Shown: positions 16,850-64,000 of the stretch, piece after piece
How the letters are laid out: every line of letters starts with the position of its first letter
Position numbering within the stretch: position 1 is the first letter of the stretch
NCBI GenBank assembly: GCA_951406725.2
Contig: OX597832.1
Location: 67,208,001 to 67,272,000 of the forward strand
Origin: Octopus vulgaris
Taxonomy: Eukaryota
Reading direction: 5' to 3'
Length of the DNA: 64,000 nt
The notes under the pieces: model-generated
Seen by the model: the letters and a program-made list of their open reading frames with translations, nothing else
The model's database searches: none
Told to the model about the DNA's origin: nothing
Program-made: the position numbers and the translations under genes

Positions 16850-17662
16850 AATTAATCATGATGAAATATAATTTAGTTAATAAAACTGAACCTAATGTAA
16901 CTATGCACCCTATAATTACATTAAAAGACCATAAGGAAAATTGTTATTCTGAGTCAAAAGTTAGACTGGGTAAATTTAGATCATTTTAAATAAACATAAT
17001 AATAGATGAAATTAAATTAATCACTAGTACTAATGATACTAGTAATAATGATACTTTAAATCTAGTTAAATTAAGTAATATCATTTTAGATAAATATATT
17101 AATAGATTAAAGGAAATTAATTACCTTAAACTTTGGATTAGTACTAATGATACTTTAAAATTGTTTAATAATACTACAGATAAAAGTAGATATAAATTCA
17201 TTCAAATGGATATAGATAATTATTATTCTTCTATTAATGAGATTGTACTCAATAAGCCCCTAATTTATACAATGAATAAGGTAGGATTGATTTCTGATGA
17301 AGTTAACGTTGTTAAAACTTCTAGGAAATCGTTGATTAGATATGATAATAAATAGTTGGCTTGGAAGGATACTATGCACTATTTTGATATACCTATGGGG
17401 GCACCGGATTCTGCACAAGCAGAGGATTTAGTAGCTTTTCATTTATTATCGGAACTCCAATTAGAAATATTAAACGTAGAGGGTGGTTAATATAGGGATG
17501 ACCATTCATTAATAACTAAGAATTGTACCTATAGAACACTAGAATTATAAAAGAAGCAACTATATAGTGTTTTTAAAACATATGGATTAAGTATTACTAT
17601 ATACAATGAGAGCTATAATGTTGATTATTTAGATGCTAATTTTAATTTAATAACGGGTAAAA
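16850..17662 (+). pseudogene. Naiad-like Penelope-like element reverse transcriptase relic
   Basis: Motifs in order: 'ITLKDHKEN..KVRL', 'FIQMDIDNYYSSINE', 'FDIPMGAPDSAQ..LV', 'GG*YRDD', '[14 protein letters not shown]'. Contains stop codons. Confidence 0.8.
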
Positions 17663-30628: not shown

Positions 30629-30772
30629 AACTTATAAATAAGGGCAAACGAAAACATTTCTAATGCCAAATATGCCGAAAATTTAACATATTGTCCATTA
30701 CCATATAATGTTTCACAATACGCACGCTACTCGAAAAAAAAAAACAACAGAAATTTCTAAAAAATTCCATTA

Positions 30773-30834
30773 TTACCATATCGGACCGATTTCGGGGTTA
30801 GTTCGTTAAGAACCCTCCCTTCGTCAGTGATAAA
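30773..30834 (-). ncRNA. Type I hammerhead ribozyme
   Basis: ttatca-CTGACGA-aggg..gttc ttaac gaac..cccc-GAAA-tcgg t ccga-TA-tggtaa. Confidence 0.85.
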
Positions 30835-31200
30835 TGTAGCAAAGAAATAAATGAGATACTTACTCATACCCATGGAAGAAGCAAAACACTAAGTCATGAG
30901 CACGATTAAGTACCCCAAATACATCCAAAATAGAAATACACCAGCCCATTCAAGACACGTGCGATGTGAACTGAGGCTCTCACAGAGTGAGAGAGTCCGG
31001 AAGTGAACACTTAAATTTATATTTAATGTAGGATAACATTTTTTTCGAAAAAAATTTTATCAATGGCTAGCATATTAAAAAATACCTTTTTTAGAGTATT
31101 TCTATTCTGGATGTATTTGGGGTACTTAATTGTGCTCATGACTTAGTGTTTTGCTTCTTCCATGGGTATGAGTAAGTATCTCATTTATTTCTTTGCAACA

Positions 31201-31262
31201 TTTATCACTGACGAAGGGAGGGTTCTTAACGAACTAACCCTGAAATCGGTCCGATATGGTAA
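31201..31262 (+). ncRNA. Type I hammerhead ribozyme (canonical core)
   Basis: ttatca-CTGACGA-aggg..gttc ttaac gaac..ccct-GAAA-tcgg t ccga-TA-tggtaa. All three stems pair. Confidence 0.9.
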
Positions 31263-31490
31263 TAATGGAATTTTTTAGAAATTTCTGTCGGTTTTTTTCG
31301 AGTAGCGTGCGTATTGTGAAAAATTATATGGTAATGGAAAATATGTTAAATTTTCGGCATATTTGGCATTAGAAAGTTTTTCGTTTGCCCTTATTTATAA
31401 GTTGTTTAAAATTTTAACCTTTAAATGTATTTTATAATATGCTGGCCATTGATAAAAAATTTTTTCGAAAGAAGTTTTATCGTACATTAA

Positions 31491-38309: not shown

Positions 38310-38360
<51 letters not shown>

Positions 38361-38366
<6 letters not shown>

Positions 38367-38606
38367 GTTGTATACCGTCAATCTAACAAGAACGTGACAG
38401 TAGAGGTACACCACCGCTGTATAGCCCTAGGAGGCATCGAACGCCTCCTGATAGCTTTGACACATTTTTTCCCTGTGTCCTTATATACATACACGAAGGG
38501 GAGACAAACACCCCCGGCCGCCGGAACTGCATCTAGGGACACCGTGTTTCAGGATCATTGTCCTTCATCGGCCTAGAGTAGCAGACACCGGTCAGCTGGT
38601 GATATT
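38361..38606 (-). repeat. Partial copy of 364-nt HHR repeat unit
   Basis: Nearly identical to 40461-40706. Begins directly at a (TA)n tract. Confidence 0.95.
38526..38584 (-). ncRNA. Type I hammerhead ribozyme (U4C variant)
   Basis: ctgc..tctagg-CCGATGA-agga caatga tcct-GAAA-cac g gtg-TC-cctaga.gcag. Predicted cut between 38538 and 38537. Confidence 0.8.
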
Positions 38607-38764
38607 ATATCTTTATTATGGGCACGATGGCCCGAATGCAGAGGGGGCATTACAGGACGGGACGTGGGGTACATAAAGTAAAAATAAAATATGAAATGAA
38701 GATAAATTATGTGTAATGATTTAGATGGAACGGCTTACGAACCCCCCAACTCGCAGTTCCGTTG

Positions 38765-38940
38765 AAAATACAATTTTACATTTTACAGTTACATATATTC
38801 CAGTTCAAAATACAATTTTACATTTTATAATTTTACAATTTACAATTTTACATTTTAACATTACATATATTCCAGTTCAAAATACAATTTTACATTTTAT
38901 AATTTACAATGTTACATGTTATAATTTACAATGTTACATA
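38765..38940. repeat. Imperfect tandem repeats of a 'ttttaca'-like 7-mer in the 3' UTR of the ORF1-like element
   Basis: 'aaaatacaattttacattt' occurs three times and 'ttacatatattccagttc' twice. Confidence 0.8.
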
Positions 38941-40221
38941 ATACGTTAAATAAACCTGATCAAACATACTTTTCAATTTAGTAAATGTTCCTTTATCTAC
39001 AACTATCCCTTTCACATCGTCATCATGCAGTTTTGGGTGTAATTTATCCCTAATTAATCCTTTCCTACCTGCAAGTCTTTTTTCCACTTCTGTGTCTTTC
39101 ACGTATAACATGAGTACTTTCAGGTATTTTCCTACAGGTCTTTTTCCCTTCTTACAAGCATCCAACTGTTCTCTCACTTTTTTCTCCATTCTAGGTTTAC
39201 CTCTGTCTTTGTCTGTTCGTCCTTTTCTTTGCACGTTCTCTCTTCTTTTTCTTCTGTTATCTTGCTTTTGATTTTTTTTCTTTTTTACAACTTTCGGTGA
39301 TGATTCCACCCTTGTTCTCTTCCTATCTTCTGTTCTTTCATCCTCTGCACTTGCACGTTCTTCTTCCATATCCTCAATTAGCTGCTCCTCCGTTTGTGCC
39401 TCCACTGCTTTCGTTTCCTCCTGCACTTCTTCCTCCTCCACACACATATCTTTCCACTCCTTCGTTACAGCCTCCGGTGTTATCGTTTTCTCCAGCGGGA
39501 ACACATCCTTCATGTGGCCTCTGAATTTGCAATTATAACAAACTGGAGGTCTTCCCTCTACCACGACTCTAAGCCGTGTCTCATCAGGGAAGACCAACTC
39601 CTCCGGGATGTTGTATAGGTCTGCCACGGTTATATGTGCCAGAACCTGTACCGCATATCCCCACCACTTAACTTCTGTTGACTTTTCCACCTTCACCACC
39701 TCCACACTTTCCTTGCAGTTGAAAACTACTGCCGCTAATATCCTCTCCATGTTAAGTTCAGGCGAAATCCTACTAATTCTTATTCTGACAGCCCTCTTTC
39801 CGCAGTAACTAGGTAATAAAGTCCAACTTTCCGATTTCAGAATTTTTGTCGCATTCTTTCTTGCTTCATTTTCATTTTTAAAGTGTACCACCACTGTGGC
39901 ATATTTCCTTCCTCTGTTGAAAAAGGTAGGTTCACCCTCAATTCCTTGCAGACATTTCTCTATTTCTTCCGTCTCTGCTACTTCTATTTTTCTTGACGCC
40001 ACACACCATGTCCTGTATGTTATCATACGTTTCTCCGCATTGTTTTCTTCTTCTTCGGACGGTGTGACTCTCACGCAGTCACCCCCCTCTTCAAACTGTC
40101 GAAATATTTTTCTAAAGTTTTCTGTTCGACTACCACTTCTTCCATTTCTAGTTCTCTCGCAACCAGGCCTCTGCCTGCTGCTCTCGCATAAGTCTGGTCT
40201 TGCATTTTCAAAAATCTCCAA
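38926..40221 (-). CDS. LINE ORF1/gag-like nucleic-acid-binding protein (RRM-like region, zinc knuckle, acidic then basic tail)
   Basis: The only long non-repetitive ORF (431 codons). 'LRVVVEGRPPVCYNCKFRGHMKDVFP' is CX2CX4HX4(F), and the F codon TTC is one substitution from TGC. 'YATVVVHFKNENEARK' is RRM-like. The track's start is TTG. The likely true start is ATG at 40205 in an overlapping frame. Confidence 0.75.
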   Translation of the reverse strand: MEIFENARPDLCESSRQRPGCERTRNGRSGSRTENFRKIFRQFEEGGDCVRVTPSEEEENNAEKRMITYRTWCVASRKIEVAETEEIEKCLQGIEGEPTFFNRGRKYATVVVHFKNENEARKNATKILKSESWTLLPSYCGKRAVRIRISRISPELNMERILAAVVFNCKESVEVVKVEKSTEVKWWGYAVQVLAHITVADLYNIPEELVFPDETRLRVVVEGRPPVCYNCKFRGHMKDVFPLEKTITPEAVTKEWKDMCVEEEEVQEETKAVEAQTEEQLIEDMEEERASAEDERTEDRKRTRVESSPKVVKKKKNQKQDNRRKRRENVQRKGRTDKDRGKPRMEKKVREQLDACKKGKRPVGKYLKVLMLYVKDTEVEKRLAGRKGLIRDKLHPKLHDDDVKGIVVDKGTFTKLKSMFDQVYLTYYVTL

Positions 40222-40325
40222 ATAAATTTCACCACGTCCTCCAGCAACGAACTCGAACTCACAACCTCTTCACAATGACGCACTCGAAACCAACACACCA
40301 GAATAACGACTCCAAAAAAAAAATA

Positions 40326-40769
40326 GGTCGGCTGGTGATATTTGCCTCGACTTCGTAATTGTATATATGTAAACTCAGTGAAGTCTATTCACTGATTATC
40401 AAAATAAGAAATATTGAATTTCTAAATCTCTCGTAGAGACATGTACGGTGGTGGGGTGATAGAATGGTTGTATACTGTCAATCTAACAAGAACGTGACAG
40501 TAGGAGGTACACCACCGCTGTATAGCCCTAGGAAGCATCGAACGACTCCTGATAGATTTGACACATTTTCCCTGTGTCCTTATATACATATACGAAGGGG
40601 AGACAAACACCCCCCGGCCGCCGGAACTGCATCTAGGGACACTGTGTTTCAGGATCATTGTCCTTCATCGGCCTAGAGTAGCAGACACCGGTCAGCTGGT
40701 GATATTTGCCTCGACTTCCTAATTGTATATATGTAAACTCAGTGAAGTCTATTTACTGATTATCAAAAT
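40326..40769 (-). repeat. 364-nt HHR repeat unit plus 80-nt tandem overlap
   Basis: 40326-40405 recurs at 40690-40769, giving a period of 364. Confidence 0.95.
40626..40684 (-). ncRNA. Type I hammerhead ribozyme (U4C variant)
   Basis: Same as 38526-38584 except stem III cac-a-gtg. Predicted cut between 40638 and 40637. Confidence 0.8.
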
Positions 40770-40771
40770 CA

Positions 40772-40873
40772 GTACCCCCTACTGTCACGTTCTTGTTAGA
40801 TTGACAGTATACAACCCTTCTATCGCCCCACCACCGTACATGTCTCTACGAGAGATTTAGAAATTCAATATTT

Positions 40874-40877
<4 letters not shown>
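40772..40877 (+). repeat. Inverted partial copy of the HHR repeat unit
   Basis: Reverse complement of about 40405-40510. Runs directly into (TA)n. Confidence 0.9.
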
Positions 40878-40943
<66 letters not shown>

Positions 40944-62226: not shown

Positions 62227-64000
62227 GAAATATGTTACGAAAAGAGAATATAAAATACACGGGGAAATGTAAGATTAAAATATGAAAAATCAACGAAAAT
62301 GCATATTGCAAATAGAAAAAGGCTATTTATGACAGGTAACGACAAATATATACATTTAGATTGACTGAGGTAGTAATACGAGTCATAAAAGTCATTATTA
62401 TGAGATGATTATAAGATGATAATAAAGTAAGAGAACAAAACGAACCAATGGTTTACGCAAAACTATTCATCGTTTGAACAACACCGGTTAATATACGGTG
62501 TGAGGTCTAGTAGTTCCTGAGAAAAAAGATTATTTGTAAGGGAGGTAAGTAGTTCTGGATTTAGAGATGTGAGTGGTGTAGGAAGTGTATAGGGTTTAGT
62601 GGTTTCAATTGAAGAGTTAGTGGTGTTCTGTATTGAGTTGTGTGTTCATATTTAGTTGGGGGAGAAATTTGTTGATGAAAAAATGCCTCTTTATTCAACC
62701 TTTGTTGCATTGTCGTGTTCTGTGAGAATTGGTAAAAGGGAAATATTTGGAAATTGGGATTAAGATTCCTGGCACATCTTTCTATGTGTTGACTCACCTT
62801 TAACTGTCTGTATTGTGGGTGACGGATTTGCTCTTTGTGAATGGTGATTCTTTGACGGAGCGAAATTCCTGTTTGTCCAATATAGAGTTTACCACATCCT
62901 ATGCATATTTCTCCTTGTTTGAATTGGAATTCTGAACCCTCCAGAAGGTGGGGGCATGTTCCACAGTTAGAACGTCCACATTTTGTCACTTTTGGCTCAG
63001 TTGTTAGTGGGTAAAGTCTAGCGCTGGTTAATATTCTTTTCAGTGACTTCGGTTGCTTTTTGCTTTTTATAATTTTATATGAGCTTAAAATTTCGTTCAT
63101 TGTTTTGTCTGCTGTGAGGATGGGAAGGTTTTGGGTAATAATGTTGAAGGCTTCGTTGTTTCTGGGGTTATGTGTGAAGATGTATGGGAGTATTTTTAAG
63201 TCTTGTTTAGTATTTCGGCTAGTTTTCCTTAATCTTTTTATATCTATTTCCTTAGCTCTTTTGATGCCTTCATTTACTAATGAGATTGGGTAATGTCTTT
63301 TAGTTAGTGGAGATCTAAGTTCAAGGAGTCTATGTTCTCGAGTGTATGTATCGGAAATTATGATGCAGATTCTTTTTGCTAGGTTAAAGGGTATGTTGAA
63401 TTTTATGTTTTTGGGGTGGCAGGAGTTAAATAATAGTTATTGTTTAGAATCTGTGGGTTTATAAAAGATGTATGTTTCTATGTGGTTGTTAACTATTCTA
63501 ATATGTCTACAAAGGGAGTTGTTTACTGTTGCGTTCCATAGTGAATTGTATATTGCTGTGTATATTGTTGAGCATTCTTTTGAAATCAACGAGTTGATCC
63601 ATGCTATCTTGCCAAAGTATGGAGCAATCATATAAATATCTCTTCCTGCTCTCCTTTAAGTACCAATTGAAAGAGGCGCCATATTTTTCTAGTGATGATT
63701 GGTATAACTTAAGTTCGTGGTAACCCATTACGAGGTTTGCAATCACTGGAGCAGCTCTGGTCCCCATTGCAATTCCGCATTTCTGTCGATAGTAAGTAGT
63801 ATCGAACACGAAATGATTGTTCAACAGGACGAATTTCAGTGCTTCAATTATAAAATTGTGGTTAATTCGTTCTGGGATCTCTTCTGGGTATTTTTCTAGC
63901 CAAAATGTGATTGCTTCTATACCGGAGTCGTATGGGATATTAGCGTATAGATTCACCACATCGAAAGATACCAGTAGAGTTCCGTCCTATACTGTCTTCG
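62225..64000 (-). mobile_element. Neptune-like Penelope-like element (RT + GIY-YIG), disrupted, continues beyond window
   Basis: RT: 'LVSFDVVNLYANIP', 'YYRQKCGIAMGTRAAPVIANLVMG', 'RYLYD' (YLDD decayed), 'IFYKPTDSKQ*..SCHP'. Endonuclease: 'KCGRSNCGTC..CIGCGKLYIGQT..RQRITIH..VSQHI'. The 3' end joins (TA)n at about 62223. Confidence 0.9.

Follow-up and report, generated by a model that had tools for sequence, protein, structure and literature searches.

An ORF1-only retrotransposon of likely Tx1-type lineage nested in a Penelope-type hammerhead retrozyme of Octopus vulgaris, at a likely snRNA-type start

Introduction

Retrozymes of the non-LTR kind (LTR, long terminal repeat) have been called non-coding (bioRxiv 10.64898/2026.07.22.740005), and an inverted arm, a tail and (TA)n flanks are described as marks of Penelope-like elements (PLEs) (PMC8557442, PMC11167929). 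Here we analyse a locus of Octopus vulgaris at which a protein-coding gene stands between two hammerhead ribozymes. It lies on the minus strand of a stretch of 64,000 nucleotides (nt), the window (assembly GCA_951406725.2, contig OX597832.1, positions 67,208,001 to 67,272,000), whose numbering is used throughout. The original prediction for this locus was that the ribozymes could release a 2.1-kb coding RNA, making a retrozyme-like carrier with a protein as its cargo. We consider it probable that the locus is a nested insertion, in which a retrotransposon of likely Tx1-type lineage, limited to the first open reading frame (ORF1) of a long interspersed element (LINE), entered a Penelope-type retrozyme at a likely small nuclear RNA (snRNA)-type start; of the nesting in itself we are more confident still.

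ORF1-only non-autonomous LINEs are known, namely HAL1 (half-L1), HeT-A and Ag-Sponge (PMC5786205, PMC5753468). Target-specific elements of the Tx1 clade include Tx1L in Tx1D, Keno in U2 and Tx1-Mar with SINEU (PMC4494074, PMC4640811); Keno and Utopia insert at U2 nucleotide 38/39 (PMC4640811). Tx1 families that target satellites and U5 have also been described (PMC4494074) and may overlap with the octopus lineage. The same source places the vertebrate proximal sequence element (PSE) 60 bp upstream and remarks that R2 is co-transcribed with its target. Finally, newt satellite 2 is a hammerhead repeat with an snRNA-type promoter (Coats 1994, cited in PMC2220036).

Results

Read along the minus strand, the locus consists of a (TA)n stretch, an inverted arm, a whole 365-nt retrozyme unit, about 80 nt of a second unit, the insert, the remainder of the second unit and (TA)n again (Table 1). 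The two co-oriented type I hammerheads of the original prediction are present, with CCGATGA cores at 40671 and 38571 and C17 at 40638 and 38538, so that the predicted cuts lie 2100 nt apart, and the insert contains neither reverse transcriptase (RT) nor endonuclease. The gene was, as proposed, brought in by insertion with a target duplication; this duplication, given as 17 bp, is present but matches at only 16 of 17 positions, and on the 5' side its last ~5 bases probably belong to the element. What had been overlooked are the Penelope-type insertion marks, a 107-nt inverted arm that is 97% identical, in opposite orientation, to 40404-40510, and a 54-nt tail. Many ORF-less loci have the same layout. 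The interrupted unit's downstream half has a natural tail-less end before the (TA)n, and the upstream unit's equivalent of the ATCAGTG motif is ATCAGTA at 40754-40760.

Recurrence of the junctions at other loci had been suggested as a check, and it was observed: exact filled 3' junctions number 14 genome-wide, on 12 contigs, versus 201 exact empty target sites. All of the best 24 subfamily 3'-end matches abut the target leader, 17 running into unit position 65 (ribozyme), four into another ORF1-only copy that starts with the target leader and three into the 5' end of an autonomous family. The junctions recur, we argue, because the Tx1-like lineage inserts site-specifically. A pattern for the 5' junction was too loose (424 matches versus 289 for its control), and its loci served as background only.

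If the filled units were descendants of one travelling composite they would be expected to cluster. The downstream halves, 17 filled and 59 empty, were placed in one tree, on which the label changed 16 times (shuffled mean 15.4), at least seven of these changes being forced by starred branches, and a single clade of filled halves appeared in 0% of bootstrap trees; the empty rows were the top unit matches plus 40 sites picked from the 201 to cover subfamilies, 10 of these 69 being without a usable row. Filled retrozyme halves are scattered among empty ones, so the element entered this site many times independently. Mantel tests gave r=0.20 (p=0.13, n=12) for ORF versus downstream flank distances, r=-0.06 (p=0.59, n=14) for ORF versus upstream flank and r=0.48 (p=0.028, n=7) for upstream versus downstream flank.

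The 1.72-kb insert belongs to a repeat family with at least 75 matches (39 of 224 candidates scored), about 45 of them near full length, at 74-94% identity; some copies stand in tandem arrays, whose members belong to different subfamilies. The gene is Gag/ORF1-like as predicted, its genomic relatives being the ORF1s of elements that combine ORF1 with an apurinic/apyrimidinic endonuclease (APE) and RT, to which the ORF1-only protein is 20-31% identical. The 431-codon frame exists, but its TTG at 40221 lies in the 5' untranslated region (UTR) and the family's start is the ATG at 40205 (MQDQTYARAAG). Because of a 1-base deletion near 40084, the N-terminus of the window's ORF1 is in another frame, and a deletion near 38934 has cost it ~30 C-terminal codons. 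The zinc-knuckle-like motif is likewise in place, but its fourth ligand is F in the window copy and C in nearly all others. With these three lesions and the longest end branch of its ORF clade, the window copy is a damaged member of the family; intact copies elsewhere encode 443-459 amino acids (aa). Among 12 intact copies, core dN/dS was 0.06-0.25 in nine of nine pairs, and the family's ORF1 is under purifying selection.

The predicted model of an intact ORF1 copy (mean pLDDT 68) resembles tandem RNA recognition motif (RRM) proteins with modest scores (Foldseek E 2e-4; VIA Z up to 8.4), and the predicted fold is two RRM-like domains followed by a CCHC knuckle. For the window ORF, Pfam gave nothing beyond zf-CCHC at E=0.83 and a CDC45 match of low complexity, and the one relative from a single-protein search was a protein of O. 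bimaculoides. A profile of ORF1 matched 1360 proteins at E<=0.001, 150 of them listed; in the 19 that were scanned, the Pfam-named matched part, where there was one, was the zinc knuckle. The family has thus spread with a single, selected ORF homologous to the ORF1 of autonomous LINEs, followed directly by a 3' UTR with AATAAA and by no ORF2. Since its ORF1 is selected, has predicted RRMs and a knuckle and is related to the ORF1s of APE-RT elements, the insert is an ORF1-only LINE of the HAL1/HeT-A kind. A PLE-native ORF1 in the style of Terminon/Athena or Chlamys-2 was rejected on account of the same relatives. A sister ORF1-only subfamily (L023, L025-L030, L067-L071, L076) forms nested tandem clusters with other ORF1-only families, and its outer 5' junctions lie ~25-30 nt downstream of TATA-like boxes (six inspected by eye, without a control). 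At L099/L073 (G000:C22:23.355 Mb) the 3' UTR of one ORF1-only copy holds a ~1.3-kb insertion that looks mariner-like.

The host repeat has at least 115 matches (40 of 2191 candidates scored), the best at 94-96% identity. At loci without the ORF we saw partial tandems and inverted truncated arms; the ends fell at unit position 312 or 366, and the flanks were (TA)n. By its unit length (150-450 nt, tandem or dispersed), type I hammerhead, inverted arm, tail and (TA)n, it is a PLE-type non-LTR retrozyme, which agrees with the earlier assignment of the ribozymes; an LTR retrozyme was rejected because the ribozyme is of type I and there are no LTRs. Besides the shared core, GUC is present in both hammerheads, stem II has 4 bp and stem III is short. 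The three helices covary in a set of eight hammerheads drawn from several retrozyme families, with 97% of 104 cells paired and two-sided changes in eight of 13 pairs; none of 500 shuffles scored as high for covariation, in a control inflated by sequence relatedness. Rfam detected no hammerhead in the window or in 38360-40880, the only window matches listed being to microsatellites and below the gathering score, and single-sequence folding of the two hammerheads was not significant (z = -1.3 and -0.4). The U4C core was present in 37 of 37 cores counted (30 loci, L031-L060); this change lowers hammerhead activity in vitro yet is tolerated in a viroid (PMC3088659). In most families folded, extended stem I starts at the target ATC.

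At least three further, diverged retrozyme families were seen at L236-L255, with TTGACGA, CTGATGA, CCGACGA or TCGAAGA cores, and all have a PSE-like motif. In a retrozyme array at L061-L062 (G000:C1:194.34 Mb), successive units each hold different ORF1-only or autonomous elements. The window also contains a broken Penelope-like element at 62561-63986 (minus strand), with weak RVT_1 and GIY-YIG matches.

Fragments adjoining three ORF1-only copies led to an autonomous family with ORF1, APE and RT (42 matches), whose 1134-codon open stretch is kept in two of 20 copies. Downstream of these 20 copies lie a hammerhead-core pattern (10), a core with one visible change (2), U2 (2; confirmed by Rfam at 179-185 bits), another element (3) or an unrecovered end (3), and the copies at L235, L257 and L258 occupy the homologous site in a relative of the window's retrozyme unit that is 76-88% identical to it. 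The 3' tails of the ORF1-only elements (stem-loop plus AATAAA) resembled autonomous ends better than shuffled sequence did in three of four comparisons (p 0.001-0.005). The ORF1 of this co-targeting family shares just 20-23% identity with the ORF1-only protein, so the donor is deduced from target and tail and not from descent. The partner has an ORF1 with RRM and CCHC and an ORF2 with APE, RT and a C-terminal zinc domain, an architecture common to other L1-group clades too; its target specificity with a long target duplication is of Tx1 type. A PDB search with the partner RT placed L1 ORF2p closer than R2 (E 1e-50 versus 1e-25), and no match named Tx1 was found for it in the cluster look-up or Atlas. 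Judged on architecture and target specificity, the partner likely represents a Tx1-type lineage. Keno was rejected, as the duplication spans U2 +1 to +14 and not 38/39. A second autonomous family has the tail in common and a different target. Finally, a young autonomous family (L116-L145; ORF2 of 1132 aa, 95-99% identity, 51 matches) inserts mostly before ACAACATGGAGGAAAGCACC, a repeat reading like decayed ORF1 sequence.

Of 42 U1 matches, 20 loci were fetched, and all 20 have ATCAGT at -57 to -59; of 48 U2 matches, 30 loci were taken, and 27 have it at -57 to -61. Both sets include near-copies from clusters, and in two of the three U2 exceptions the retroelement's 3' end lies at that place. 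With one-letter variants allowed, the same motif is found at -56 to -60 of ATC in 33 of 34 insertion targets, three of which are U2 genes, where the chance of such a motif is ~0.002 per 5-nt window. The position, ~60 bp upstream of the start and common to U1 and U2, is that of a PSE-like motif of snRNA-type promoters. In each of the four U2-inserted copies, U2 +1 to +14 is followed by a 16-nt leader that agrees with +1 to +16 of a retrozyme family at 15 of 16 positions. Among 12 junctions of the window subfamily's type, 11 have CCGACC in the 5' duplication copy; the C occurs in nine of the first 100 empty sites listed. Because the retrozyme leader is carried into U2 and the 5' duplication copies are biased to CCGACC, RNAs starting at the target ATC are suggested. 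Given that the sites lie at the homologous position in several diverged retrozyme families or at U2 +1 and have ATCAGT in common, the lineage likely targets snRNA-type starts and uses them for transcription, and on this sequence evidence we think it likely that the target site is an snRNA-type promoter start. Full-length autonomous elements were found at U2 +1 at G000:C3:20.81-20.83 Mb (L259, L260, L218) and C23:43.31 Mb (L223); each has a retrozyme-derived leader and separates the U2 promoter from a complete U2 gene on the downstream side.

Table 1. Features of the composite locus, in the order of the minus strand
Feature	Positions	Strand	Remarks
Inverted, 5'-truncated copy of the retrozyme unit's last 107 nt (PLE-type arm)	40772..40878	+	Adjoins (TA)n
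One complete ~365-nt hammerhead retrozyme unit	40405..40770	-	Includes 54-nt tail 40405-40459
Upstream type I hammerhead, U4C core, short stem III	40632..40677	-	Predicted cut 40638/40637
PSE-like motif ATCAGTG	40390..40396	-	57 nt upstream of insertion site; putative promoter role
Start of second unit, up to target	40326..40404	-	Predicted +1 at 40339; 5' duplication copy 40342-40326
ORF1-only (HAL1-like) non-LTR retrotransposon, 1.72 kb	38607..40325	-	T-rich 5' UTR, ORF1, 3' UTR, terminal stem-loop, AATAAA 38612-38617
ORF1, broken in window copy	38926..40205	-	ATG 40205, frameshift, two predicted RRM-like domains, CCHC knuckle 39499-39540, C-terminal deletion
Downstream half of interrupted unit	38361..38606	-	3' duplication copy 38606-38590; predicted +1 at 38603
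Downstream type I hammerhead	38532..38577	-	Predicted cut 38538/38537, 66 nt from predicted +1

Elsewhere in the window, 30737-31298 is a MITE-like (miniature inverted-repeat transposable element) inverted repeat with 203-nt arms, 97% complementary, around a 156-nt spacer, and 16990-17355 (plus strand) is an AT-rich 121-aa frame, which we take to have an RT-like motif.

Discussion

A plausible scenario for the nested insertion is as follows. ATCAGT would mark the PSE, with RNA polymerase II (Pol II) starting at ATC; insertion would duplicate about +1 to +12, thereby placing the element under the host repeat's promoter and leaving the ribozyme body whole downstream. The element's RNA, starting at +1, would be packaged in cis by its own ORF1p and, as the common target and tail suggest, reverse-transcribed in trans by the ORF2p of the autonomous family. 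Any read-through RNA may be trimmed by the downstream hammerhead 66 nt into the target.

The idea that the composite of retrozyme and ORF1 is itself the mobile unit, its ribozyme-cut 2.1-kb linear or circular RNA being reinserted by a Penelope RT, is improbable as the main mode of spread and, as an occasional side route, still unlikely though less so. It draws on the clean two-ribozyme bracket in the window and L093, on PLE-type ends at composite loci and on two unusual loci. At L098 (G000:C20), (TA)n is followed by an inverted arm, which covers unit positions 312 to 79 and runs at a 3-nt microhomology directly into the interior of the ORF; there is no target duplication, and the two arms differ at 3 of 234 positions. 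L072 (3657-5493) shows a fusion between a truncated ORF1 copy and the 3' portion of a PLE-like ORF. However, PLE-type ends are equally present at ORF-less loci, and L098 carries an internal deletion, so that a later deletion can explain its join; for both loci either an occasional PLE copying of the composite or a later deletion is a possible explanation. An upstream co-oriented hammerhead core was found in four of 19 composite loci, leaving 15 without an upstream ribozyme, and the clean bracket is limited to the two loci named above. In addition, filled halves are unclustered, the nearest relative being an empty unit for 13 of 17 (of the four exceptions, two lie next to each other at a single locus), ORF and flanks are uncorrelated, and the same ORF family also occurs at targets that have no ribozyme. 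A protein-coding retrozyme is therefore not what we see as the general case: the filled units are not one ORF-congruent lineage and most copies are without ribozymes on both sides. The self-excising coding retrozyme of the original prediction thus finds no support as the main mode, and the two-ribozyme bracket is incidental, owing to the whole unit that the host array had on its upstream side. The window locus may still yield a 2100-nt cleavage product as a by-product, although the ORF of this copy is broken, and the proposed search for reads joining 38538 to 40637 is not diagnostic because the join recreates ordinary unit sequence. At the other extreme, a one-off chimera, as the prediction had allowed, or an assembly artefact would suit the long end branch and the lesions of the window copy, but we give it practically no credence: the recurrent junctions refute it, and a contig of run X16 spans the 3' junction (38551-38684, 3 differences), which argues against an artefact. 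Of 30 bins, 29-30 are covered by contigs from two presumed-RNA runs and two unlabelled ones, which carry no information on strand, ends or circles.

With regard to how the nested element finds its site, we see an even chance that it is tethered to the promoter complex rather than guided purely by sequence. The argument for recognition of the complex, perhaps helped by RNA-target pairing, is that the targets have little in common beyond ATC and the promoter motif. The same nested element could instead be targeted in the manner of R2, by the sequence preference of its endonuclease and pairing of a read-through RNA trailer; the promoter complex would have no role and the link to the PSE would supply expression only. 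This we find rather doubtful. It would fit with ATCGCT being common to U2 and the retrozyme leader carried into U2, with U1, which starts at ATAC, being hardly targeted despite the same upstream motif, and with target choice in Tx1 elements being usually ascribed to the endonuclease (PMC4494074). Yet, for a single autonomous family, the targets vary outside ATC (ATCGAAAACC, ATCGCTACC, ATCTTCAGC, ATCGCTTCTC) but keep a fixed distance to the motif, and the placement of the sister subfamily's outer junctions relative to TATA-like boxes also stands against a purely sequence-guided choice. A broader, tentative proposal, to which we would give somewhat less than an even chance, is that this octopus LINE lineage reads transcription-start complexes and not DNA sequence, with one branch inserting at the +1 of SNAPc promoters, namely those of U2, of several hammerhead retrozyme families and, rarely, of U1, and a sister branch downstream of TATA boxes. 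Riders would use the retrozyme's promoter at the 5' side and its ribozyme at the 3' side, and Penelope RT would occasionally re-copy the composite, giving a possible protein-coding retrozyme.

Several observations weigh against the nested insertion as we have described it. Sample sizes in the Mantel tests were small, and L098 does resemble a PLE-made insertion of the composite. One of the four tail comparisons was not significant (p=0.17), the ORF1-only protein is closer to another family's ORF1 (30-31% identity) than to that of the co-targeting family, and the Tx1 label comes from architecture and target specificity, not from a tree or named references. Linker and C-terminal dN/dS exceeded 1 in some young pairs. 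As to the promoter, the near-copies among the U1 and U2 rows count here as well, and none of the top 20 U1 loci was targeted. The sole U1 3' junction genome-wide (L356:6646-8795; G000:C18:49.05 Mb) belongs to a 5'-truncated copy, 88% identical to the partner, at U1 +1, on whose 5' side no U1 promoter or duplication was found.

Each part of this arrangement has precedent, and what is apparently new is the combination of an ORF1-only rider and a LINE at snRNA-type starts of retrozymes and U2. Among the titles and abstracts that our literature searches listed, none described a LINE that targets retrozyme starts; such families may be recorded in Repbase, in subscription papers (Kojima and Fujiwara 2004) or in figures and supplements, which those searches did not cover. 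The arrangement amounts to three-tier parasitism, with a Penelope element, its retrozyme, and a LINE and half-LINE at the retrozyme's start site. Insertions and carried-over leaders point to an snRNA-type promoter and start in mollusc retrozymes, which we otherwise found reported only for newt satellite 2. Should the site be set by distance to the PSE and not by sequence, the lineage would be an example of a LINE tethered to SNAPc promoters, with a bearing on how APE-type elements change targets. A more general caution is that an ORF between two ribozymes in an animal genome can be a nested insertion and not a coding circular RNA.

How does the locus compare with described systems? Like newt satellite 2, the host would be a hammerhead repeat with an internal snRNA-type Pol II promoter, the octopus promoter being proposed from motif and position alone; that satellite is amphibian, and our literature searches found no retroelement targeting it. 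Like HAL1, HeT-A and Ag-Sponge as they are described, the insert has one ORF1-like protein under selection, no RT or endonuclease and a LINE-like 3' tail, and its tandem arrays recall HeT-A; those elements derive from the L1, Jockey and CR1 clades, none being given from Tx1 in the accounts cited, and the octopus element is site-specific for a ribozyme repeat. The lineage shares with published Tx1-clade elements an APE-type LINE, 10-17 bp duplications, other repeats and snRNA genes as targets, sequential tandem insertion, non-autonomous riders on the same target and a proposed transcription from flanking target sequence. Unlike Keno and Utopia, it duplicates U2 +1 to +14 and enters the equivalent position in several retrozyme families. 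R2 RNA is processed by a ribozyme, and Ty3 and TRE5 are tethered to Pol III initiation factors. As in those three, the octopus element would use its target's promoter and insert at a fixed distance from it; unlike them, it has a different clade and endonuclease, and the ribozyme belongs to the target, 3' of the element. The host repeat resembles non-LTR retrozymes and the pseudo-LTRs of PLEs (PMC7229834, PMC4209133, PMC8557442, PMC11167929, bioRxiv 10.64898/2026.07.22.740005): its unit falls within 150-450 nt and bears a type I hammerhead whose stem III is short, it forms partial tandems, and it has the inverted 5'-truncated arm, the tail and the (TA)n targets. The octopus tail is 54 nt as against the 30-40 reported, and, unlike in described non-LTR retrozymes, the protein here is a passenger insertion, not a retrozyme cargo by descent.

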